Under the pieces are notes generated by a model. It did not search any database, was not told the DNA's origin, and saw only the letters and a program-made list of their open reading frames with translations. A program made the position numbers and the translations under genes. 38,030 nucleotides of DNA from a virus: the UHGV virus genome UHGV-0362136; one strand, given 5' to 3'. Shown one piece after another: positions 1 to 38,030 of the stretch; position 1 is the first letter of the stretch, and the number at the start of each line of letters is the position of its first letter.

Positions 1-745
1 CCGCGCCGGGGGCATCGATGACGTCGGGGTAGTAGGTGGTTTCCCATCCGGCGCGGTCCTTGTGGGCCTGAGTGATGCCGCCGATGGGTGATACGCGCAA
101 CCACCGGCGGTCGTAGCGCCCGCGCATCGACATGGCGTAGGCGGGATGAACTGGCAGATCGTGGCGGTGCAGGTAGGCGAACACGTCCACTGCCGTCCAT
201 CGGCCGATGGGGCGGCAGGCGCCCGGCCCAGCCTCACCCCAGCGACCCATTGCCATCGCCCTCATGCGGGACTCCTCGGCGCGAACCCCAGAGATATGCC
301 GCGAGCCGTGGTGGACCTCAGCCTCATGGAACTGCCCCCCGACATGAGAGGCGGTCCGCTTGGCGTCTGCCAGGTCATCGATCTGCCACCATCGAGGCCC
401 CGGGGAAACCCAGTACTCGTGGTAGTCGACATAATCTCCCCACCGTTCGAGGAACGCGTCGCGCACTGTGAGGCAGTCGGGGTTCTCGTAGCGGCGCATA
501 CGCACGTAGACCAGCGGCAGCACGAGCCCGCTAGTGGCTGCCAGGTGGGCGACGACGGTGGAGTCCTTGCCCCAGGAGGTCGAGACGTAGCAGGGTCCGG
601 AGCCAGCGAAGTCGGTGATGACACCCTTGGCGCGGGCCTCGCGGCGCGGCCACGACGGGTTTTGCGCCAACCGGGCGTCGTAGCGTTCGATGCTGCGCCA
701 GTGGTCGAGGTCGCCGGGCTTGAAGCGGGGTGATGGGATCAGCAC
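1..745 (-). CDS. CysH-like phosphoadenosine-phosphosulfate (PAPS) reductase family protein; N-terminal about 248 aa in window, 3' end runs off the left edge
   Basis: Translating the minus strand from a GTG at 745 (GGAGG 7 nt upstream, overlapping the stop of the upstream ORF) gives an open frame to position 1. It contains a PP-loop-like motif CYVSTSWGKDSTVVAHL (variant of SGGKDS) typical of PAPS reductase/DndC-like ATP pyrophosphatases. It is not in the ORF track because no stop lies inside the window. Confidence 0.55.
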   Translation of the reverse strand, partial: MLIPSPRFKPGDLDHWRSIERYDARLAQNPSWPRREARAKGVITDFAGSGPCYVSTSWGKDSTVVAHLAATSGLVLPLVYVRMRRYENPDCLTVRDAFLERWGDYVDYHEYWVSPGPRWWQIDDLADAKRTASHVGGQFHEAEVHHGSRHISGVRAEESRMRAMAMGRWGEAGPGACRPIGRWTAVDVFAYLHRHDLPVHPAYAMSMRGRYDRRWLRVSPIGGITQAHKDRAGWETTYYPDVIDAPGA

Positions 746-963
746 AGCTTGACCTCCGGAGGGGTGGCGGCCTTGTGCCAGCCGGTAGAGCGGGGGCCGT
801 CCCATGCGGCGTATCCGCCTCGGCGCAGCCGCACCAGGGACTCTCGGATTCGCTGGACCGGCGCGTCGAGGGCGTTGGCGCAGGCGGTGTCGGTGGCGCG
901 GCGGTGGCGGTTGGGGCGGGCTGGCAGCCAGCGCCATACCGCCAGGTCGGTCTCGGTCAGCAT
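739..963 (-). CDS. small basic protein (74 aa), possibly winged-helix DNA/RNA binding; part of the csf-like operon
   Basis: ORF track 739..963. ATG overlaps the upstream stop (ATGCTGA) and its stop overlaps the downstream GTG start. Sequence ...ALDAPVQRIRESLVRLRRGGY... is helix-turn-helix-like. Confidence 0.3.
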   Translation of the reverse strand: MLTETDLAVWRWLPARPNRHRRATDTACANALDAPVQRIRESLVRLRRGGYAAWDGPRSTGWHKAATPPEVKLC

Positions 964-1538
964 GATGTTCTCCTCGTGTAGTGCCAGTAGGGGGCGCGGG
1001 CGGCCTCCTGTGGCGGGAATGGGCGGTCATCCCAGCCGCCGTCGCGGTGCTCGATGGTCCATGCGGTGACGTGCCCGTGTCCGGCGTTGTGGCGGGCGCC
1101 GATATGGGTTACCAGGCGCAGCAGGTCGGCCAGGTCGTCGACGTCGGTGACCTCGGCGTCCCACCAGATCTGGTCTGTAATGGCGGCGGAGCGGATGACG
1201 TTGCGGGCCTTGCGGGGGCCGAGGCCGAGGTGGACCTTCGCGTCGTGGGTAAGGAACGTCATCGCTTGAGTGGCGGGCTTGCGGCGAATGTCGGTTGAGG
1301 TGTGGAGGGGCTCGGCGTAGTGGGCGCAGGAGACCTGCCAACCCCAGGTGCCGCCCAGCTCCCACCGCCTCAGCGGCAGCGGGAAGTCGGGCGCATGGGT
1401 GGGGGTGATCGGCTCGATGGGCTGCCCGTGGGCGCGGGCGCGCATGGCCCACGCCCACGACAGTGGCCCATCTAGCATGGTGGGGTGCTCCTCCAGCCCC
1501 ACCACGGAGGTGTCGAGATGGGCGGTGATCCTCACGCC
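957..1538 (-). CDS. small RAMP protein, Csf3/Cas5-like candidate
   Basis: In-frame GTG start at 1538 overlaps the stop of the upstream gene (GTGA), with GAGGTG upstream. The C-terminal glycine-rich loop THIGARHNAGHGHV resembles the GxxxxxGxG loop of Cas5/Cas6 RAMPs. The first 34 aa of the ORF-track product are overlap junk. Confidence 0.35.
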   Translation of the reverse strand, partial: GVRITAHLDTSVVGLEEHPTMLDGPLSWAWAMRARAHGQPIEPITPTHAPDFPLPLRRWELGGTWGWQVSCAHYAEPLHTSTDIRRKPATQAMTFLTHDAKVHLGLGPRKARNVIRSAAITDQIWWDAEVTDVDDLADLLRLVTHIGARHNAGHGHVTAWTIEHRDGGWDDRPFPPQEAARAPYWHYTRRTSC

Positions 1539-2413
1539 GACACCTCTGCGATCAGGGCGGTGATGGCCTCGGCGTTGTCCCGGGTGTGACTGGTGAGCCA
1601 GTCGATGGCCTCGGCCTGCCCGGTAGTGTCGGTGAGCCACTCAATATCGGCGGCCCCGTAGCCGGTGGCGGTGGAGGCTCCCAGCCTCACGTGGCCGTTG
1701 GGTGCCCACAGGCCGAGGGTGGCCAGCAGTACCCGCCGATGGGTGTCGGTGGCGGCCGGGGTGAGGGTGATGGATCCGGCGAGCATGGCCCCCGAGACGA
1801 GCACCTGGGTGTCGTAGATCATCTGCGTGGTGGTGACCGCCGGGGCATCGAGGGTGTCGGGCGAGGCGATCATGCGGGCCGCCATCGTGGATGCAGTGTC
1901 GTGGCGTGTGCCGAACTCCTCCCCGCGGTAGGCGGCAGCCCGCTTGGGGCGCAGGGCCGCCGTGTCGGGGTCGAGGCGCCACCCGTTTTCGGCGCACACG
2001 AGGATCGCATCAGAGACGCGCAGGGTGCCCTCGTGGATGTCGGAGCGGGCGGCGTATCCCATCATCGACAGGCCAGGCAGTAGCTCGTCGACGCGGCGCT
2101 GCATGTCCAGGTCGACCTGGGCGCCGGTGGAGGTGACCGCCCCGCCTGACCACAGCAGGTCGACGCCGGCCTTGGTGAGCGCGCCGTCCAGGTGGAGGGT
2201 GTCGGCCATGTGCCAGGCCAGCGCGTCGCGCAGGCCGTGGCGGATGGATCCCGCCGACAGGAACGGCACTCGGGCCGCTGTTCCGTCAGGCAGGACGACG
2301 TCCTGGGTGCGCAATAGGCGGGTATTGCCGGCGTTGCCTGCACCGTGGGCGAAGGGTGCGGTCAGGGTGGCGCGGTAGCGGTAGAGCGGTGCGGTGGTGG
2401 TGATGGTGGTCAT
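1532..2413 (-). CDS. Cas7-family RAMP (Csf2-like backbone subunit)
   Basis: ATG at 2413 shares one nucleotide with the preceding stop (TGATG). N-terminal motif LTAPFAHGAGN matches the RAMP motif (L.TPLHIG.G). VPFLSAGSIRHGLRDAL matches the RAMP signature (IPGSSLKGALR). C-terminal LGASTATGYGAADI matches the G-rich loop (LGG....GFG). There is also an internal LLWSGGAVTSTG motif. Confidence 0.55.
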   Translation of the reverse strand: MTTITTTAPLYRYRATLTAPFAHGAGNAGNTRLLRTQDVVLPDGTAARVPFLSAGSIRHGLRDALAWHMADTLHLDGALTKAGVDLLWSGGAVTSTGAQVDLDMQRRVDELLPGLSMMGYAARSDIHEGTLRVSDAILVCAENGWRLDPDTAALRPKRAAAYRGEEFGTRHDTASTMAARMIASPDTLDAPAVTTTQMIYDTQVLVSGAMLAGSITLTPAATDTHRRVLLATLGLWAPNGHVRLGASTATGYGAADIEWLTDTTGQAEAIDWLTSHTRDNAEAITALIAEVSA

Positions 2414-2808
2414 CAGAACGGGATCTCCTCGGTAGCAGCGGACTTCTTCGGTGCGGTCTTTTTCTTGGTGGTCTTGCGCTCGTCGCGTTCTGCCAGCGCC
2501 ATCGCGGCGATGTAGGTGACGTTGTGGGCGACATGTGAGGCCCACGCCTGGTAGTCGGCGTCAATGACGTTCGCGACCTTGACGGCCGCTTTGGCGTGGG
2601 AGGGGTGGATGGCCGGGATTTGGAGTTTGTGGCAGCAAGTGGTGATCGCCTGCCCGGCGTCCTGCGATCCGGCAGCGGCGGTTTCCAGGGCCGTGTTGAT
2701 CCGACCGGACCAGAACTCCAGCGGCCCGAGGTCGGCCAGGGAGCCGCGCAGCGCGAAGATCAGATCAATCGTGGCGGCGTCGAGTTCTTCTGGTGCGGGC
2801 GTGGTCAT
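2413..2808 (-). CDS. Cas11-like small subunit candidate (131 aa), with SSB-C-terminus-like tail EEIPF
   Basis: ATG at 2808 overlaps the csf1-like stop. It is a small predicted alpha-helical protein lying between the Csf1-like and Cas7-like genes, as in type IV-B loci. The C-terminus KKKTAPKKSAATEEIPF resembles the SSB C-terminal tip (the phage SSB here ends AEAPF). Confidence 0.35.
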   Translation of the reverse strand: MTTPAPEELDAATIDLIFALRGSLADLGPLEFWSGRINTALETAAAGSQDAGQAITTCCHKLQIPAIHPSHAKAAVKVANVIDADYQAWASHVAHNVTYIAAMALAERDERKTTKKKTAPKKSAATEEIPF

Positions 2809-3530
2809 TGCATTGTTCCTTTCGTGATGGTCCACAGTGCGAGGTCGAGCAGGGGAGAGCGGTGCCAGTTGGCAATCTGGGCGTCGAGGTCCCGCCAGTG
2901 CAGCAGGTCGGCGCGGGTGCGCACGTAGTCAGGTCGGCCCTCCCGAACGCCCTCGGCGGGGACGCCCATGCGCCGCAACTCCAGGGCGATGGCGTGGACA
3001 TGCCTCCACTGCTCGGGGGTGGCGGAGACCTGGGTGTCCTCCATGCGGATCGTCCAGGCACCGTCGCCGTGATTGAGGGGGGTGTAGGGGACGACGTGCT
3101 TCTGGCCGGAGATGGCCACGGACGCCACCCAATCACCAGCTGGTGGGCTGGCGAGCAGCTCCACCAGTGGAGCTGGGTTGGCTCGATTGAGCAGCGACAG
3201 TCCGGGGGTGTCCTGCAGCCATGCCTTCTCGTGGGTACGACAAGGGGCGTCCGGCTCCCCGGCCACGATCGTCCACATGCGCAGGGTTGCCGGTGGCTTG
3301 CCGGAGCAACACCACAGGCAGGCGGTACACACCCGCGAGGTGGGAGCCACGCACAGCGACCTATCGGTGAAGTTCTTGCCCAGGGCGCGGTCGAAGTCTG
3401 CGGTCACCTCCTCGTGGTGGCCGCAGATCGCACACACTCCCGGTTCATCGGTCAGGTGCTTGGCGGTCGAGGCGACGGTGATCTCAGGGGATCCGGCTCG
3501 GGCGTAGATGAGTCTGGTGGCCTCACTCAC
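2805..3530 (-). CDS. Csf1-like (Cas8-like) large subunit candidate with N-terminal zinc finger
   Basis: 241 aa with a Cys cluster CAICGHHEE...(23 aa)...C...CTACLWCC in the N-terminal third. Its position directly upstream of the cas11-like/cas7-like/cas5-like genes matches type IV csf1. Start overlaps the upstream stop by 4 nt. Confidence 0.4.
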   Translation of the reverse strand: MSEATRLIYARAGSPEITVASTAKHLTDEPGVCAICGHHEEVTADFDRALGKNFTDRSLCVAPTSRVCTACLWCCSGKPPATLRMWTIVAGEPDAPCRTHEKAWLQDTPGLSLLNRANPAPLVELLASPPAGDWVASVAISGQKHVVPYTPLNHGDGAWTIRMEDTQVSATPEQWRHVHAIALELRRMGVPAEGVREGRPDYVRTRADLLHWRDLDAQIANWHRSPLLDLALWTITKGTMQ

Positions 3531-4078
3531 AGCAGACCCTCCATGATCGTTAGACCACAGCCGTAGGCCTTACCGGTGCCGATCCCGGCCAGACGCAGGC
3601 CGTCGAGCGCTCCGGCGTCGGTCACAGTCCCCGTGGCGATCGCCGTGCACTGCTTCACCGTCGCCGTCGTGCCGGGCTTGTAGGCGCGAGCCACGCGCAG
3701 TAGATCGACCGTGCAGGAGTCCACATCGACCGCCCCGGCGAGCTTCCGGGCGTACCAGTCAGACCACCGATCGGAGGGCAGCGGGCGGCGCTTCCCTCTC
3801 TTGCCGGCACCGCGGGACACCGAGACGGTGGGGCAGACCACGCTCAGTACGCGCACCGGCTCCCCGGCTCCGATATCAGGCAGCGGACTGCAGTTCAGCT
3901 CGACCATCCCGACGGGAGGGTGGCCCCGCTCGGCCTGCACGAAGCAGGACCTCCCGATCCACGCCCACAGCACCCGCTCGGCCTCATAGGAGGCGGCGAT
4001 GTCGCGATGCAGGCCTCGGATGTTGCGCCCGGCGGCGTCACAGGAGCGCTCACTCATCTCAAGGGCGTAGAGGTTCAT
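3527..4078 (-). CDS. Cas6-family endoribonuclease candidate (Cas6e-like)
   Basis: C-terminal LAGIGTGKAYGCGLTIMEGLL closely resembles the Cas6e G-rich loop (GIGPAKSMGCGLLSL in E. coli CasE, from memory). N-terminus MNLYALEMS...RNIRGLHRDI parallels CasE MYLSKV...RDLYQLHQGL, including the catalytic-His position. Its ATG overlaps the SSB stop (TGATG). Confidence 0.4.
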   Translation of the reverse strand: MNLYALEMSERSCDAAGRNIRGLHRDIAASYEAERVLWAWIGRSCFVQAERGHPPVGMVELNCSPLPDIGAGEPVRVLSVVCPTVSVSRGAGKRGKRRPLPSDRWSDWYARKLAGAVDVDSCTVDLLRVARAYKPGTTATVKQCTAIATGTVTDAGALDGLRLAGIGTGKAYGCGLTIMEGLL

Positions 4079-7325: not shown

Positions 7326-7501
7326 CGCACCTCGGGGTCGATTCCGTCGCCACCGCAGGTGCGGCACCAGCCGCCCCACTTGCCCTCGCCCGAGCCGTCA
7401 CACTCGGGGCATGGGTACTCGTCGCGTCGTGGCACCCGGCTCACATCGGCGAGCCATTCTCGCTCTGCTCTCGCAATGCTCCGCCCGTCGATGGTGCTCA
7501 T
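7319..7501 (-). CDS. small zinc-ribbon protein with two DnaJ-type CxxCxGxG repeats
   Basis: Start at MSTIDG. CPECDGSG and CRTCGGDG repeats. Confidence 0.45.
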   Translation of the reverse strand: MSTIDGRSIARAEREWLADVSRVPRRDEYPCPECDGSGEGKWGGWCRTCGGDGIDPEVRR

Positions 7502-8325
7502 GCCGACCACCTCGCGGCGAGGTTGTCGATCACGCCTGGATGAGCCGCCATGTGGGTGTCGCACAGGTCGCAGAACGCGGACAACAGCGGGCGGCGCTCG
7601 GCTGCCTGCTCGCCGGTGGCCTCTGGCCAGCCGTCGTCGCTGGCGATGAGGGAGCGCAGCTCAGCGACAGTTCCCGACCAGCAACCGATGGTGACCCTCC
7701 AGCCGTCAGGCGTGGGGATTAGTAGACAGCGGTAGGGGTGGATGCCGTCGATGCACAGGCCGTCCCACAGCCTCCCGTACAGGTTGGCCCCGCGCAGGTC
7801 GACCCCGTACAGGTTGGCCCCGCGCAGGTTGGCCAAGTGCAGGTTGGCTCCGCGCAGGTCGGCCTCGTGTAGGTCGGCCCCGCGCAGGTTGGCCCCGCGC
7901 AGGTCGGTCTCGCCCAGGTCAGCCTTACGCAGATTGGCCTTACGCAGGCCAGCCCAACGCAGGTCGGCCCCGTGCAGGTCGGCCTCGTGCAGGTCGGCCT
8001 CGTACAGGTCGGCCCCGCTCAGGTTGGCCTTACGCAGGTTGGCTCCGCGCAGGTCGGCCTCGTGTAGGTCGGCCCCGCGCAGGTCGGCCTTACGCAGATT
8101 GGCCCCGCGCAGGTTGGCCAAGTGCAGTTTGGCTCCGCGCAGGTCGGCCTGAAGCAGGTCAGCCCAACTCAGATTGGCCCCGTGTAGGTCGGCCCCGCGC
8201 AGGTTGGACCCGTACAGGTCGGCCTTACGCAGGTTGGCCCCACGCAGGTCGGCCTTACGCAGGTTGGGTGTCTCTCCACGGTATCTGGCCTCGCGGATGA
8301 TCTCTAGAACGTCGTCGCGGTTCAT
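7498..8325 (-). CDS. pentapeptide-repeat protein (about 38 A(D/N)LxxA-type repeats) with a unique roughly 85-aa C-terminal domain
   Basis: Translation is almost entirely ADLRGANLRKADLYGSNLRGADLHGANL... repeats. The DNA shows a 15-nt periodic repeat (gcgcaggtYggccYY) across about 7742-8280. Confidence 0.85.
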   Translation of the reverse strand: MNRDDVLEIIREARYRGETPNLRKADLRGANLRKADLYGSNLRGADLHGANLSWADLLQADLRGAKLHLANLRGANLRKADLRGADLHEADLRGANLRKANLSGADLYEADLHEADLHGADLRWAGLRKANLRKADLGETDLRGANLRGADLHEADLRGANLHLANLRGANLYGVDLRGANLYGRLWDGLCIDGIHPYRCLLIPTPDGWRVTIGCWSGTVAELRSLIASDDGWPEATGEQAAERRPLLSAFCDLCDTHMAAHPGVIDNLAARWSA

Positions 8326-9488: not shown

Positions 9489-9758
9489 TCATGCTGCCCG
9501 CCCTACTTGTTTTGCACGTTCCGAACTTGCATGCGACGGCATAGAAAAGTCCTCTCCATATGCGAAGGCGTCTTCTATGTCGATGTCGAGCTTCCGGCAC
9601 ATCGTCAGCGCGAGACGTTCGGAGCATGTGGCCGCTCCCCCCGTCTCAACGAGCGACACGAACTGCTGTGTGCATCCGGTGATCGCGGCTAGGTCCGACT
9701 GAGACAGTGAGCGTCGACGGCGCGCTCTGGCGATAGCGCCAGGGTTAATGATCCGCAT
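9489..9758 (-). CDS. XRE-family HTH regulator (Cro-like, 89 aa)
   Basis: Start at MRIINPGAIARARRRRSLSQSDLAAITGCTQQFVSLVETG (AGGGAGG RBS). The ORF-track N-extension is not credible. Transcribed divergently from the repressor-like gene. Confidence 0.7.
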   Translation of the reverse strand: MRIINPGAIARARRRRSLSQSDLAAITGCTQQFVSLVETGGAATCSERLALTMCRKLDIDIEDAFAYGEDFSMPSHASSERAKQVGRAA

Positions 9759-9984: not shown

Positions 9985-10473
9985 ATGGATGACGTGACAG
10001 CGCTCCAGCGTCTCATCGCAAACCGGCAACGGGACCTCAACGCCCCGAGCCTCATCGCGATGTACCGTGCGGCAAACCTGCCCAGGGGTGCCATCACATA
10101 CGAGACCCTGCGTCGTATGGCGACAGGGCGGCAGCGGTCCATTCGTGGGGATCAAACCTATGAGGACCTGTCGACCATCCTCCGGGTGAGCGTTGATGAC
10201 GTGAAATCGGCAGAGGCCGGGTACACGCCCATCGGGGGATGGGAGCGGTACGAGCGGCTCAACGCCGAGGAAAGGAAGGCTGTCGAGGGCGTCATGGACG
10301 CCATACTCGCGGCACGGGAAGCAGGAGGTAGCAGTGATGACCGGCAATCTGAGGCTCAGAAGAGCCCGCTAGAGGCGTCGGGGAGCGAGGAAGCCACCCT
10401 CGCCGCCGACAACCCCGGCACGCCGACCGACCGCGAGCGCATGGAAGCAGAGTGGGGCGATGAACCCGCCTAA
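9985..10473 (+). CDS. repressor-like DNA-binding protein (ImmR-like partner of ImmA)
   Basis: AAGGGG RBS before the ATG. Has a degenerate HTH and an acidic C-terminus. Overlaps and precedes the ImmA/IrrE metallopeptidase gene, as in ImmR-ImmA modules. Confidence 0.45.
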   Translation: MDDVTALQRLIANRQRDLNAPSLIAMYRAANLPRGAITYETLRRMATGRQRSIRGDQTYEDLSTILRVSVDDVKSAEAGYTPIGGWERYERLNAEERKAVEGVMDAILAAREAGGSSDDRQSEAQKSPLEASGSEEATLAADNPGTPTDRERMEAEWGDEPA

Positions 10474-10861
10474 CCCGTGGGCATGGCTGCGCTCGCGGCC
10501 ATCCATTGACCTCGTGTGGGGTGGGCTGCCGGTCGGATGGCGTGGAGCCACGGACGGAAGCACCATCTGGATAGCCGAGAGGCTCACCCAGCGGGAGCGA
10601 CGATCCACCCTCGCGCACGAGATCACACACATCGAGCTAGGGCTCCTCGGGCCACAGTCACCCGTCTGTGAGGAGCGTGTCAGGGTCGCCACGGCACGGT
10701 GGCTGCTGCCAGACCTGGACGCGATAGCGGACGCCCTGGCTGACTCGACACCCGAGGATGCCGCCACAGACCTGTGGGTAGCAGACGATATCCTCGCCAC
10801 GCGACTAGCACACCTCACCGCCGGTGAGCGTGACCACATCAGCCGCACAGCAGAGATATAG
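10460..10861 (+). CDS. ImmA/IrrE-family zinc metallopeptidase (anti-repressor protease)
   Basis: HEXXH motif in STLAHEITHIELGLLGP with the typical size and context (COG2856-like). Confidence 0.7.
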   Translation: MNPPNPWAWLRSRPSIDLVWGGLPVGWRGATDGSTIWIAERLTQRERRSTLAHEITHIELGLLGPQSPVCEERVRVATARWLLPDLDAIADALADSTPEDAATDLWVADDILATRLAHLTAGERDHISRTAEI

Positions 10862-10873
10862 AGAGGATTCGCC

Positions 10874-11176
10874 ATGAAGAAAATCGGTGCCGACATGCTG
10901 GCCAATCTCGACCAGCAGCTCGCCGATGGCAAGATCGGTCAGGCCGAGCATGACTCGCGACGGATCGAGATCGAGGAAATGATTCGCACTGGCAAAGATG
11001 TCGACATGGACGCGGGGGAGCGCGTCGGGCGTGCCATCGGCGGCATTCTCGTGTGGCTGTTGGTGGCGTTCGCCTTCGGGTTTCTAGTCCCTGGACCCCA
11101 GCCGCTTCCATTCATCATTGGGATGCTTGTCGGCTTGTGGCCTGCCCTGCGGATCGCTCATCCACGGCTGCGCTGA
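10874..11176 (+). CDS. small membrane protein with SHOCT-like N-terminal motif and two TM helices
   Basis: LANLDQQLADGKIGQAEHDSRRIEIEEMIR resembles the SHOCT motif. Followed by GGILVWLLVAFAFGFLV and IIGMLVGLWPAL hydrophobic segments. Confidence 0.4.
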   Translation: MKKIGADMLANLDQQLADGKIGQAEHDSRRIEIEEMIRTGKDVDMDAGERVGRAIGGILVWLLVAFAFGFLVPGPQPLPFIIGMLVGLWPALRIAHPRLR

Positions 11177-11178
11177 CC

Positions 11179-12231
11179 GTGGCTGTCCAGGACCTGTGGC
11201 GGGATCGTCACGGCAATCCCACTCGCCGGGATGGTCGCGGGAAACGGTGGCGTGTCGTGGTGGCTGGCTGGCCCACCACGGCATGCCGCACCAGGGCTGA
11301 GGCCGACCGGATCAACGCCATTCGGCTCACGACGAAGCCGCCGCGCCCCGAGGATGGGCGAACCGTCGGCGACCTCGTGAGCGTGTGGCTGGATGGCAAG
11401 CGCGGCCTGAGCCCCAAGGGTTACGAGGCGGCAGAGCTCGCGGCCTCGTATGTGCGAGAACGATGGGGCGATGTGAGCCCGTCGGACGTGAGTGCCCCCG
11501 ATGTGCAGTCGTGGATCGCGTCGCTGCGCACCGCACATGGCCCGGCGTCGGCGTCACTGCGACACAAGGTATTGCAGTGTCTCCGGGGGGCTGTGGGGGA
11601 CCGTGCAGACCTGTCAGCGGTGAGGGCGCCGCGGGAGGTGCGCCGGGACGTGCACCCGCTGAGCATTGATGAGCTGAGGGTGCTCGCCGAGGAGATAGGC
11701 AAGGGGCACGGGCGTGACGATTCGGCGGCCCTCGTCTGGCTGCTGGGCACGACAGGTCTGCGCATCAGTGAGGCGATGGCGTTGAATGTGGGGGACGTCG
11801 ATTCGGAGCGCAAGCGGCTGAGGGTGCACCGCTCCAAGACGGGCCGCGCCCGCGATGTGCCAGTCCCGGCGTCCGTGTTGGCCATGCTCGATCTGAAGCG
11901 AACCCCGTCGGAACCGCTTGTGCGTGGGGCTCGTGGCAGGAGGCTGTACAAGGATTCATGGCGGCAGCGGAGGTTCCGTCCGGCCTGCGACAGGCTGGGA
12001 TGGCAGGGGCTACGCATCCATGACCTGAGGCACACGGCGGCATCGCTGGCCATCGCGAGTGGCGCGGACGTCAAAGCGGTCCAGCGGATGCTCGGGCATG
12101 CGTCGGCGACGATGACCTTGGACTTGTACGGGCACTTGTGGGATCGCGGGCTGGATGATGTCGCCGACCGGATGGAGGCGATGATGGCGGCTGAGGACGA
12201 TACCCAGACTGTACCGGGGTCGCTTGACTAG
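11179..12231 (+). CDS. int: tyrosine integrase (phage integrase family)
   Basis: Start placed at a GTG just after the upstream stop. The catalytic region has ...LRISEAMAL..., HDLRHTAASLAIASGADVKAVQRMLGHASATMTLDLYGHL (R..H..R..Y signature). Confidence 0.9.
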   Translation: MAVQDLWRDRHGNPTRRDGRGKRWRVVVAGWPTTACRTRAEADRINAIRLTTKPPRPEDGRTVGDLVSVWLDGKRGLSPKGYEAAELAASYVRERWGDVSPSDVSAPDVQSWIASLRTAHGPASASLRHKVLQCLRGAVGDRADLSAVRAPREVRRDVHPLSIDELRVLAEEIGKGHGRDDSAALVWLLGTTGLRISEAMALNVGDVDSERKRLRVHRSKTGRARDVPVPASVLAMLDLKRTPSEPLVRGARGRRLYKDSWRQRRFRPACDRLGWQGLRIHDLRHTAASLAIASGADVKAVQRMLGHASATMTLDLYGHLWDRGLDDVADRMEAMMAAEDDTQTVPGSLD

Positions 12232-12237
12232 GCATGG

Positions 12238-12290
12238 GGCCTACTTTGGGAGCAGGAGACCGCAGGTTCGAGTCCTGTCGCCCCGACCCC
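12238..12290 (+). other. attP-like core: 3' portion of a tRNA (anticodon loop TGG suggests tRNA-Pro) from anticodon arm through T-arm to acceptor 3' strand
   Basis: With numbering from 12215, the T-loop TTCGAGT falls at tRNA positions 54-60. T-stem is GCAGG/CCTGT, anticodon loop is ttTGGga with U33, and the 3' acceptor strand is CGCCCCG-A-CC. The 5' acceptor and D stems do not pair, so only the 3' part is tRNA-derived. It lies immediately after int. Confidence 0.5.
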
Positions 12291-36270: not shown

Positions 36271-36732
36271 TCATATCTCCGTCGCGCTGGACGCTCTTCT
36301 GATGGCCTCGCGCAGTTGCGCCCGCCTATCGACCCGCGATCGGGTTTCCGTAGCGTCAGAGGGGCGTTTTTGTGCGTCTGGCGGGCATTCCAGGGCCGGG
36401 GTGTCGGTTTGGTTTCCGCTGGCGATCTGCTGACGGGTGGATTTGAGCCACTCGCGGTAGGCGTCTGGGTCGGCGGGTGCGCCGGTGAGTTCGGCCCTGT
36501 CGAGGCGTGCGGCGCGGGCGCGGCGCACCTGGTTGAGGACCTGTCGGGGGTCGATCCACAGCGGGCGGGTGTCGGCGGATCGGGCGATAGCGACCACGGC
36601 GGCGCGGGCGTCATCGTAGGTCACGTCGGCCAGCACGTCGCGCCACACATCCGGGGTGTACTCGTCGATTTTCTGGGCGGGGCAGCATGCCTGTACGTAG
36701 CGGGTGAGCTGCAGGGCCTCGGTGGCGTTCAT
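36271..36732 (-). CDS. hypothetical protein (153 aa)
   Basis: Start at MNATEALQLTRY (AGGAG RBS). Confidence 0.4.
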   Translation of the reverse strand: MNATEALQLTRYVQACCPAQKIDEYTPDVWRDVLADVTYDDARAAVVAIARSADTRPLWIDPRQVLNQVRRARAARLDRAELTGAPADPDAYREWLKSTRQQIASGNQTDTPALECPPDAQKRPSDATETRSRVDRRAQLREAIRRASSATEI

Positions 36733-37628
36733 GCGGTCTCCTGTGCGTCTCGGGCTTGGGCGCGTTTGAGTGCTCGTGCCCACTGGTCGTCTGTGAGTCC
36801 AGCGCCAGGTCTGGCGCTGCCGCTGGTGTCAGCGGAGCGGCGGATCCAGTTGCGCCAGGTGGCGTCCCAGTCGCGTTTGCGGCCTCGTTGGCCGGGGACT
36901 CCGGCCCAGTAGTCGCGGAATCGGTCGAGCTGGTCGGTGAGCCATGCGGCGTCTCTGCCTGCCTCGGCGGCGAGATTGGTGTCGGTGCGGGCTGGGCTCC
37001 AGTCGTCTGGCAGGCGTGTGCCGTGCTGGCTGGCACCCGCCACGGCGGGTGCTGTGCGCCCCGTGACCAGCGCGAGTTGACCAGACTCAACGACAGTTGA
37101 GTCTTCTATATGGGTACGGGTACGGGGCTTAGCAGCGCTGTTTGCATTCTGCTTAGCGGTACGCTTGCCGTCCTGCTTAGCGGGCCGCTTAGCGCTCTGC
37201 TTAGCGTCCTGCTTGTCTCCCCTAGTGGTACGGGCTTTGCCACCCCTGCGTCCGATGTCGGCCATGCGCTTCCGTGTGGCCTCGACAGCGGCCTTTGTGG
37301 GCTGAAACTCGCCCCAATCGTGGTACTGATACCCCCCCTCCACCTGCATCCACAGTCCGGCGTCAAGCAGCGATTGCACCGGATCGTCAAGCGGGCGCTT
37401 AGCGTCCTGCTTAGCAGCGCTGCTTAGCGTGCCGCTAAGCGTGGTGCTAAGCGTGGCGCTTAAATGGCTGCCGAGCATGGCCGAAACCACCCTGTCCGGC
37501 ACGAATCCGTCCGTGAGCTGCGCGGCGCTCCAAGCCCCGCAGATCGTCCACAGCCCCAGCGCTTCCAACGGCAGGCCGATCACCTTGGGATTCATGGGCA
37601 GCTGGTCGTCAACCTTGAACCACGGCAT
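36729..37628 (-). CDS. hypothetical protein with conserved N-terminus (MPWFKVDD...) and Lys/Ala/Gln-rich repetitive C-terminal half; candidate replication/DNA-binding protein
   Basis: ORF track. N-terminal WTICGAWSAAQLTDGFVP. C-terminal half AKQDAKQSAKRPAKQDGKRTAKQNANSAAKP is encoded by GCTTAGCG-type nucleotide repeats. Confidence 0.4.
   Translation of the reverse strand: MPWFKVDDQLPMNPKVIGLPLEALGLWTICGAWSAAQLTDGFVPDRVVSAMLGSHLSATLSTTLSGTLSSAAKQDAKRPLDDPVQSLLDAGLWMQVEGGYQYHDWGEFQPTKAAVEATRKRMADIGRRGGKARTTRGDKQDAKQSAKRPAKQDGKRTAKQNANSAAKPRTRTHIEDSTVVESGQLALVTGRTAPAVAGASQHGTRLPDDWSPARTDTNLAAEAGRDAAWLTDQLDRFRDYWAGVPGQRGRKRDWDATWRNWIRRSADTSGSARPGAGLTDDQWARALKRAQARDAQETA
37130..37452. repeat. iteron-like array: about 10 copies of GCTTAGCG / CGCTAAGC (direct and inverted) inside the 36729..37628 gene
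   Basis: Direct copies of (c)tGCTTAGCG near 37131, 37155, 37179, 37191, 37204, 37398, 37409 and 37422. Inverted GCTAAGCG copies near 37434 and 37446. Confidence 0.5.
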
Positions 37629-38011
37629 TAGAAACTCACCTCCTGTTGGGTGATAACGAGACGTATGCGGTGGGTGCCCTTCGGGCTGCAGCCCGGCTCG
37701 CGGCGATAGTCGGGTCCGACGAGGTGTGTCGAGTCGTCATCGGGCAGCATCCCGGCATCCACCAGGCCATCGACCAGGGCCTTGACGGTGGGGGCGGCGT
37801 TGGCTGGGTCAGCCCGCCCGCCACGCGGATACTGAATCCAGGCGGCCACGTGCACCACTTGGTGGCTACCCAGGTGCGCCTGCTTGGCGGCCCAGTAGCC
37901 CCTGGTGCGCAGCTCCTTGGTGCGGTATGCGCGGTACGCCCAGTGTTGCACGCGGTCGTTAGCTGACAGCCACTCGACGTTGGGCACCTCAATGATGATC
38001 TGGTCAGTCAT
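37628..38011 (-). CDS. rusA: RusA-like Holliday junction resolvase
   Basis: 127 aa. ...ADPANAAPTVKALVDGLVDAGMLPDDDSTHLV... resembles the RusA Asp-rich catalytic region (D.DN..K...D.L...G...DD..v). Position at the end of the early/replication region. Confidence 0.5.
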   Translation of the reverse strand: MTDQIIIEVPNVEWLSANDRVQHWAYRAYRTKELRTRGYWAAKQAHLGSHQVVHVAAWIQYPRGGRADPANAAPTVKALVDGLVDAGMLPDDDSTHLVGPDYRREPGCSPKGTHRIRLVITQQEVSF

Positions 38012-38030
38012 GCTGCGCCTCCTTGCGCCC

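Follow-up and report, generated by a model that had tools for sequence, protein, structure and literature searches.

A type IV-B-class CRISPR-Cas module with a Cas6e-family gene on a temperate phage of Cutibacterium avidum

INTRODUCTION

Type IV-B is a widespread CRISPR-Cas subtype, and in reviews up to December 2024 its RNA partner and its role are still unsolved. The structure of its ribonucleoprotein (RNP) and the length of the bound RNA come from the Csf complex of the Mycobacterium sp. JS623 megaplasmid (PDB 7JHY; Zhou et al. 2021, PMC7937560). Here, we analyze the UHGV virus genome UHGV-0362136, a stretch of 38,030 nucleotides (nt) that we call the window, in which seven overlapping minus-strand genes lie downstream of ssb. 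They encode a Cas6e, Csf1, Cas11, Csf2/Cas7, Csf3/Cas5, a 74-amino-acid (aa) protein (p74), and a CysH-like enzyme. We conclude that this module is almost certainly an intact IV-B-class effector, equipped with a Cas6e and carried by a temperate phage of Cutibacterium avidum.

Like the JS623 locus, the module combines csf1-cas11-csf2-csf3 with an adjacent cysH-like gene and has no array, no cas1/cas2, and no helicase gene. Unlike that locus, it is phage-borne, it apparently belongs to an early lytic operon, and it has a variable slot between csf3 and cysH that can hold p74, a methyltransferase, or a helix-turn-helix (HTH) protein. Its Cas7 is only about 24 to 30% identical to those of plasmid IV-B systems. 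The JS623 locus and the plasmid loci L002 and L003 lack a Cas6e-family gene, whereas the window module has one.

IV-B loci with Cas6 have been described as "rare exceptions: only 12 instances," and IV-B has been reported in actinobacterial prophages (Pinilla-Redondo et al. 2020, PMC7038947). The window module likewise comes from Actinobacteria and is associated with a prophage, and its clade is probably the same as the Cas6-bearing one of that report. The report leaves the clade undescribed; here, we find Cas6e in 35 of 35 loci, with the His at the catalytic position kept and with signs of purifying selection. Type IV systems have also been noted in prophages and some phages, with IV-B function still to be characterized (PMC10848311, PMC11656645). 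The Bathyarchaeia "Fuxiviridae" (PMC10848311) and Skermania phage SPI1 (KR011061) resemble our phage in encoding a IV-B effector with a cysH-like gene. They differ from it in that the fuxivirus has a mini-array and no reported Cas6e and in that SPI1 has no detectable Cas6e and a Cas7 only 27% identical. Type IV-A systems (csf1-3, Cas6/Csf5, DinG, and an array) share the pairing of a type IV effector with a Cas6-family processing enzyme, and some of them use Cas6e-type enzymes and cooperate with host type I-E systems (PMC8175902, PMC7038947). The window locus differs from them in having Cas11 and a CysH-like protein. An assignment to IV-A was rejected because there is no DinG and no array.

Since the literature already holds prophage-borne IV-B and Cas6-bearing IV-B, the window module is not a new kind of system. 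An initial annotation, made from the sequence alone, had presented a phage-borne IV-B locus with an extra Cas6 as novel, and this was overstated, as PMC7038947 reports both. PADLOC and CRISPRCasTyper also hold profiles that closely match the module proteins. Nothing here is categorically new; the module is a real member of a known family whose function is unsolved.

RESULTS

Gene content of the module

The initial annotation had read six of the genes as Cas6, Csf1, Cas11, Cas7/Csf2, Cas5/Csf3, and CysH, and profile searches (PADLOC, Pfam, and NCBIfam) assigned each of them to that role. The seven open reading frames (ORFs) are where they had been proposed; every frame is intact and an overlap is present at every junction (Table 1). 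G+C content at third codon positions is 0.81 to 0.85 in the seven genes, typical of real genes, in a window of 65% G+C. The profile check of the RAMP and Csf1 candidates, on which the initial annotation had staked its reading, returned Cas7, Csf3, and Csf1.

Csf1 matched PADLOC Csf1_0_IV at an E value of 9.4e-36 and NCBIfam TIGR03114 at 1.7e-6, which is below the curated cutoff; the NCBIfam matches to csf1, csf2, and csf3 are all subthreshold. Cas11 matched PADLOC typeIV_Cas11 (2.8e-47) over positions 1 to 117 of the 120-position profile. For Cas7, we found matches to PADLOC typeIV_Cas7 (2.6e-88) and phrog_22746 (2e-29), and the three RAMP motifs that had been quoted for it are all present in the sequence. 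Compared with Csf2 of PDB 7JHY, the single IV-B Csf2 of solved structure, it gave an E value of 1.8e-7 as a single sequence and of 2.1e-20 as a clade profile (residues 33 to 290). Csf3 matched PADLOC Csf3_0_IV (1.5e-25) and NCBIfam TIGR03116 (2.2e-11), and the identical protein carries a precomputed match to Pfam PF27782 (Csf3).

These five components, counting the cysH-like gene, were found as the IV-B layout predicts, and no array, adaptation genes, or DinG/RecD accompany them in the phage genome. The typical absence of Cas6 does not hold, as a Cas6e-family gene directly precedes csf1; this makes the locus a variant and does not exclude it from IV-B. The initial annotation had also called the operon fused to the ssb gene. 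The two are translationally coupled through the overlap of their stop and start codons, but there is no protein fusion, and the ssb adjacency is not conserved in relatives.

The four cysteines of Csf1 are kept in the window and lost in about half of the relatives. Thus, zinc binding seems dispensable in this clade. The cysteines are replaced, for example by CxxT...GxxA, in L015-L017, L020-L023, L027, and L029.

Table 1. Positions of the module genes and of other named genes in the window, with the overlap that joins each module gene to the gene before it
Feature	Position	Strand	Overlap with preceding gene	Basis or remark
cas6e-like endoribonuclease gene, 183 aa	3527..4078	-	TGATG (ssb/cas6)	PF08798, PADLOC Cas6/Cas6e, AlphaFold2 + Foldseek
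csf1, type IV large subunit, 241 aa	2805..3530	-	GTGA (cas6/csf1)	PADLOC Csf1_0_IV; CxxC...CxxC
cas11, type IV small subunit, 131 aa	2413..2808	-	ATGA (csf1/cas11)	PADLOC typeIV_Cas11 (Csf4gr11)
csf2/cas7, backbone RAMP, 293 aa	1532..2413	-	TGATG (cas11/cas7)	PADLOC typeIV_Cas7, 7JHY match
csf3/cas5, 193 aa	957..1538	-	GTGA (cas7/cas5)	PADLOC Csf3_0_IV, TIGR03116, PF27782
p74, 74-aa protein in variable csf3-cysH slot	739..963	-	ATGCTGA, 7 nt (cas5/p74)	no family match
cysH-like PP-loop enzyme, residues 1-248 of 255	1..745	-	GTGCTGA, 7 nt (p74/cysH)	Pfam PAPS_reduct, phrog_2302
cysH, last 7 codons and stop, across circular junction	38008..38030	-		overlaps start of rusA-like gene
RusA-like resolvase gene	37628-38011			downstream of cysH
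Replication-initiator gene	36729-37628			
cro-like HTH gene	9489-9758	-		divergent from cI-like gene
cI-like gene	9985-10473	+		lysogeny switch
ImmA/IrrE-type metalloprotease gene	10460-10861			PF06114; after cI-like gene
Integrase gene	11053-12231			

The Cas6e-like protein

The initial annotation had recognized the extra gene as Cas6-like, and profiles, a structure model, and Foldseek place it in the Cas6e family. The protein matched Pfam PF08798 at 30.8 bits (cutoff, 25; E value, 4e-7), PADLOC Cas6 and Cas6e at 2e-11 and 4e-10, and over its full length the CRISPRCasTyper-derived profile Cas6_5_IV at 1e-6. A profile of 19 clade members aligned with Thermus thermophilus Cse3 over the full length (E value, 3e-16). 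The AlphaFold2 (AF2) model has a predicted local distance difference test score (pLDDT) of 96.7. When searched with Foldseek, it returned Escherichia coli CasE at the top (TM score, 0.82), and CasE and T. thermophilus Cse3 filled ranks 1 to 20. All 19 clade sequences share His24, which lines up with the histidine in "yemHRTl" of Cse3 (1WJ9/2Y8W). The protein also has a G-rich C-terminal loop, GxGxxKAYGCGL, in which G165, G167, G173, and G175 are invariant in the clade sequences. The Cse3 residue that aligns with His24 is the catalytic residue His26. Judged by the predicted double ferredoxin-like fold, the glycine-rich loop, and the His at the catalytic position, the extra gene is a genuine member of the Cas6e family.

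Fold, loop, and catalytic-position His are shared with the type I-E Cas6e proteins, E. coli CasE and T. thermophilus Cse3. However, those are 199 to 250 aa long, whereas the phage proteins are 179 to 197 aa and form a separate subfamily, are encoded with type IV and not Cascade genes, and have no cognate repeat in cis. In a collection of 5.8 billion proteins, this subfamily comprised 14 clusters, which scored at least 131 bits, while no canonical CasE scored above 89 bits. In NCBI, the identical protein is entered as "type I-E Cas6/Cse3/CasE [Cutibacterium avidum]," and all proteins of the subfamily are labeled "type I-E"; as a consequence, these loci will be mistyped. A type I-E fragment, as the label suggests, was rejected because all other subunits are type IV.

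The cas6e hidden Markov model (HMM) that matched every clade locus had no match in the IV-B loci of plasmids or of the Skermania phage. Of the subunits, Cas6 evolves fastest: its mean pairwise identity is 34%, compared with 48 to 56% for the others, and its divergence covaries with that of Cas7 (rho, 0.57). The ratio of nonsynonymous to synonymous substitution rates (dN/dS) was 0.11 to 0.44 for the module genes in informative pairs and 0.15 to 0.40 for cas6. These ratios indicate that the module is under purifying selection, cas6 included.

The CysH-like enzyme and the variable slot

The CysH-like protein matched Pfam PAPS_reduct (PF01507; 1.9e-9) and phrog_2302 (1e-27). The motifs SxSWGKDS (PP-loop), GxRAEES, and CRPI are conserved in 23 homologues, the Cys of CRPI being clade specific, and no C-terminal ECGLH-type catalytic cysteine is present in the 23-sequence alignment. 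By these motifs, the protein matches the description of "CasCysH," in which the PP-loop is kept and the catalytic C-terminal Cys is absent (PMC8175902). One proposal, built on PP-loop/adenylation chemistry, is that CasCysH AMPylates or modifies nucleic acid (PMC8175902). Dnd-type phosphorothioation was rejected, as both the catalytic Cys and the dndA/B/D/E genes are missing. CysH identity does not follow that of Cas7 (rho, -0.10).

Between csf3 and cysH, the window encodes p74, a putative winged-HTH protein in the initial annotation, which had no match in Pfam, NCBIfam, PHROG, or PADLOC and for which a single-sequence AF2 model gave two helices only, at a low-confidence pLDDT of 64.7. Homologues of p74 occupy the same slot in L012-L015, L018, L019, and L035; the window lineage and its closest relatives carry a p74-like protein there. 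A DNA methyltransferase lies exactly in this position in 14 of about 29 distinct related lineages. These enzymes belong to two unrelated families, D12/Dam-type (PF02086; 6 lineages) and N6_N4 (PF01555; 8 lineages); examples are L016:9420-10268, L024:9415-10341, and L048:11092-11871. An HTH_3 protein fills the slot in 2 lineages, and it is empty in 6. No methyltransferase is mentioned in PMC7038947 or PMC8175902.

Relatives and their distribution

We found no match to the module region by megablast against deposited phage genomes and none to CysH by tblastn at 1e-5. Among these 50,697 genomes, a Cas7 relative was present only in Skermania phage SPI1. There (L001, 4798-8431), orf40 to orf43 correspond to csf1, cas11, csf2, and csf3 (PADLOC E values, 2e-28 to 1e-66) and orf44 is CysH-like; all five are annotated "hypothetical protein." The cas6e HMM detected no Cas6e-like gene in this locus. 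Twenty-two actinobacterial or archaeal plasmids match Cas7 at 24 to 33% identity.

Closer relatives came from viral contigs and bacterial genomes. IMG/VR held 23 viral contigs with Cas7 identities of 43 to 63%. GTDB genomes, scanned with a Cas7 alignment of clade members, added 12 more loci with the module, in Cutibacterium porci, five Corynebacterium species or strains, Nocardia, Scrofimicrobium, Brevibacterium, Phytoactinopolyspora, Streptomyces, and Frankia. Three further loci were found in Collinsella. The order cas6e-csf1-cas11-csf2-csf3-[slot]-cysH is common to all clade loci from these three sources. Across Actinomycetota, the module is carried by at least 35 related loci of prophage or viral origin, and its gene order is kept across several actinobacterial orders at 42 to 71% identity. 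The relatives do not keep it next to ssb, recT, or rep. Cas7 proteins of this family are rare: among 1.84 billion proteins, 632 representatives matched at an E value of 1e-3 or lower and 35 at 1e-30 or lower. We have little doubt that the window module, identified as a whole, belongs to a distinct IV-B clade borne by Actinomycetota prophages, always with a short Cas6e in front.

One Streptomyces metagenome-assembled genome has a second, canonical Cas6 (L045:4337-5065; PF01881, 2.7e-8) after csf3, besides the Cas6e-like protein upstream of csf1.

The phage genome and its host

The initial annotation had described cysH as truncated. The gene is indeed cut at the window edge, but only because a circular contig was linearized. 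With 38008-38030 joined to 1-745, CysH is 255 aa long and the same as that called in the independent contigs L004-L011, and several independent contigs with this cysH measure 38.0 to 39.3 kb. Read through the window ends, cysH gives a full-length protein; the window holds the whole phage genome, about 38 kb, in circularly permuted form.

The same phage was found as contigs of 38 to 39 kb and as a prophage in C. avidum contigs of about 310 kb in two NCBI assemblies. Lysogens of C. avidum include the strains of GCA_036906215.1 and GCA_024105055.1. An identical Cas7 occurs in 124 assembly blocks, and the Cas module was present in all 24 of the contigs read that carry the RusA of the window phage. 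The NCBI record of the identical Cas6 protein carries the name of the host, C. avidum. The temperate context that had been proposed was borne out: integrase, Ant, RecE/RecT, SSB, tape measure, capsid, portal, and terminase were all identified, and an ImmA-like protease, cI-like and cro-like regulators, an excisionase-like HTH protein, and an HNH protein are encoded as well. The window is a complete temperate siphovirus of the skin bacterium C. avidum.

The genes run in the order pentapeptide-repeat protein, RecE-like exonuclease, RecT, HNH, SSB, Cas module, RusA-like resolvase, and replication initiator, beyond which lie genes for terminase, portal, capsid, tape measure, tail proteins, and endolysin. 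On the minus strand, no terminator-like site occurs from the switch region (about 9.76 kb) to position 1. Because such sites are missing, the module appears to be part of the early lytic transcript, in the cro-side operon between ssb and rusA/replication initiator.

Four other observations concern the phage genome. In the early operon, just upstream of the gene for the RecE-like exonuclease, 7498-8325 (minus strand) encodes a 275-aa pentapeptide-repeat protein (Pfam E value, 3e-72) that may be a DNA mimic or an antidefense candidate; similar genes occur in the related prophages L014, L016, and L017. Inside the replication-initiator gene, 12/24-nt GCTTAGCG-type direct repeats at 37127-37215 and 37397-37460 look like iterons or an origin embedded in rep. 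A weak, subthreshold tRNA-like Rfam match (22 bits) at 12215-12286 (plus strand) overlaps the 3' end of the integrase gene and is probably an attP core derived from a tRNA gene. Finally, one variant of the window prophage has a GmrSD_C (type IV restriction) gene beside the integrase gene (L004:678-1823) that the window lacks; it is a variable defense moron.

Search for an array and an RNA partner

The initial annotation had seen no array in the window, and neither did Tandem Repeats Finder, Rfam (E values up to 5), a repeat-spacer scan, or a repeat search across the 38 kb. The repeat-spacer scan found no array or mini-array in the window or in 34 fetched loci, only coding and iteron-like repeats, and the sole strong tandem repeat of the window is the pentapeptide-repeat gene. 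Among the large ORFs of the complete genome, all of them phage genes or unknowns, there was no Cas1, Cas2, or helicase match.

The type I-E system of C. avidum has GTCTTCCCCGCCTACGCGGGGGTGAGCC as its repeat (PMC3316620). The window contains no copy of GTCTTCCCCGCCTACGCGGGGGTGAGCC at up to 3 mismatches and no match to a CCCCGC-N3-7-GCGGGG hairpin. A relaxed hairpin pattern matched in 3 of 47 loci, at unrelated places, and when the module was scanned in 18 loci for perfect hairpins of 7 bp or more, none was found at a conserved position. The conserved active-site His of Cas6e, together with the failure to find an RNA partner in cis, points to an RNA supplied in trans.

DISCUSSION

We consider it likely that the IV-B-class identity of the module, combined with an RNP mechanism of the following kind, is the best explanation as a whole. 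On induction or infection, the genes would be cotranscribed and translationally coupled, as the overlaps and the missing terminator-like sites suggest. Csf2 and Cas11 would form a Csm-like filament on an RNA of about 55 to 60 nt, with Csf3 and Csf1 as caps; such an assembly is fairly probable, given the homologous JS623 complex of known structure. Cas6e would bind, and probably cut, a hairpin RNA and stay at its 3' end, which would leave a defined RNA in the complex. The fold, the catalytic-position His, and the G-rich loop give about an even chance that a Cas6e-defined RNA is supplied in trans. Having no repeat or conserved hairpin of its own, the phage would take this RNA most plausibly from the type I-E CRISPR transcripts of the host, or alternatively from another cellular or phage RNA. 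Host I-E transcripts are the obvious candidate, though we hold them to be possible rather than probable. The PP-loop CysH-like enzyme would then use adenylation-type chemistry on the nucleic acid that the complex binds or targets. That the result would serve conflict between phage and host or between elements, and not adaptive immunity, has in our view about an even chance.

Several points weigh against this account, most of them against the use of host CRISPR RNAs (crRNAs). The JS623 IV-B complex did not enrich coexpressed I-E crRNAs (PMC7937560), IV-B and I-E show a negative correlation over genomes (PMC7038947), and bit scores set the phage Cas6e subfamily well apart from canonical CasE. 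The fast evolution of Cas6 could equally mean a relaxed role. In clade alignments, the Cas7 loop has no invariant Asp, which leaves target RNA cleavage unsupported; the 7JHY alignments begin at residue 45, and the putative catalytic Asp42 of JS623 Csf2 lies outside the aligned span. A fully specified version, in which a dedicated, fast-evolving Cas6e captures and cuts host I-E transcripts or another host hairpin and loads the Csf filament while CysH, with the methyltransferase where there is one, marks nucleic acid, is doubtful.

The chemistry of the module might instead be its purpose. The CysH-like enzyme, often with a methyltransferase, would mark phage DNA or RNA and so help it to escape restriction or defense, and the Csf RNP would only be a scaffold or targeting device. 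We hold this to be possible but not probable. It would account for the recurrence of methyltransferases of two unrelated families in the slot, and it fits the position of the module among replication and recombination genes, the conservation of the PP-loop motif and of the clade-specific CRPI Cys, and the proposed activity of CasCysH (PMC8175902). However, the module of the window phage, slot included, contains no methyltransferase, the slot is empty in six lineages, and methyltransferases are such common phage early cargo that the slot may simply be a hot spot for insertions. By the criteria of PMC8175902, the enzyme also lacks the catalytic Cys of DndC/CysH. The RNA itself could be the target if Cas6e and the Csf filament soaked up host pre-crRNA, crRNA, or small guides in lytic growth as an anti-CRISPR sponge, which would disable the RNA-guided immunity of the host without any targeting. 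A sponge has been raised for IV-B before (PMC7038947, PMC7937560), and it would suit an early lytic operon in a host species with a I-E system, a Cas6e that is a I-E-type repeat-binding enzyme, and a Cas6 divergence fast enough to track host repeats. It leaves the strictly conserved CysH-like protein and Csf1/Csf3 unexplained, six genes are costly next to known anti-CRISPRs (PMC7038947), and recognition of the host repeat by the phage Cas6e has no support; we think it unlikely.

A role in replication or recombination, with an RNA-binding filament assisting SSB, RecT, and RusA at R-loops or primers, for example, and no part in conflict, is suggested by the coupling to ssb, by the rusA and replication-initiator genes that follow, and by the presence of the module in all contigs of the window phage that were read. 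This is quite improbable: these neighbors are not conserved in relatives, the same family is on plasmids without them, and a Cas7 relative in only one deposited phage and a CysH in none argue against a general replication function. Least probable by far is an inert remnant or misannotation, a decaying I-E or type IV fragment of the host picked up by the prophage. The NCBI label of type I-E CasE and the missing array and adaptation module could be read in this way, but the frames are all intact and overlapping, the other subunits are type IV and not I-E, gene order is kept across actinobacterial orders, dN/dS is well below 1, and catalytic and structural motifs are invariant.

Returning to an RNP loaded by Cas6e, the intact active-site His of the clade's enzyme implies a specific hairpin RNA substrate. 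If guide capture is true, the phage would steal or neutralize host guides in lytic growth, and IV-B would gain an RNA source and a function. The analysis leaves two concrete leads: a Cas6e in every locus of the clade that was examined and the methyltransferase between csf3 and cysH, whose recurrence is a lead to what CysH does. A small inducible prophage, a culturable skin bacterium, and a host type I-E system together offer a tractable entry to IV-B function.

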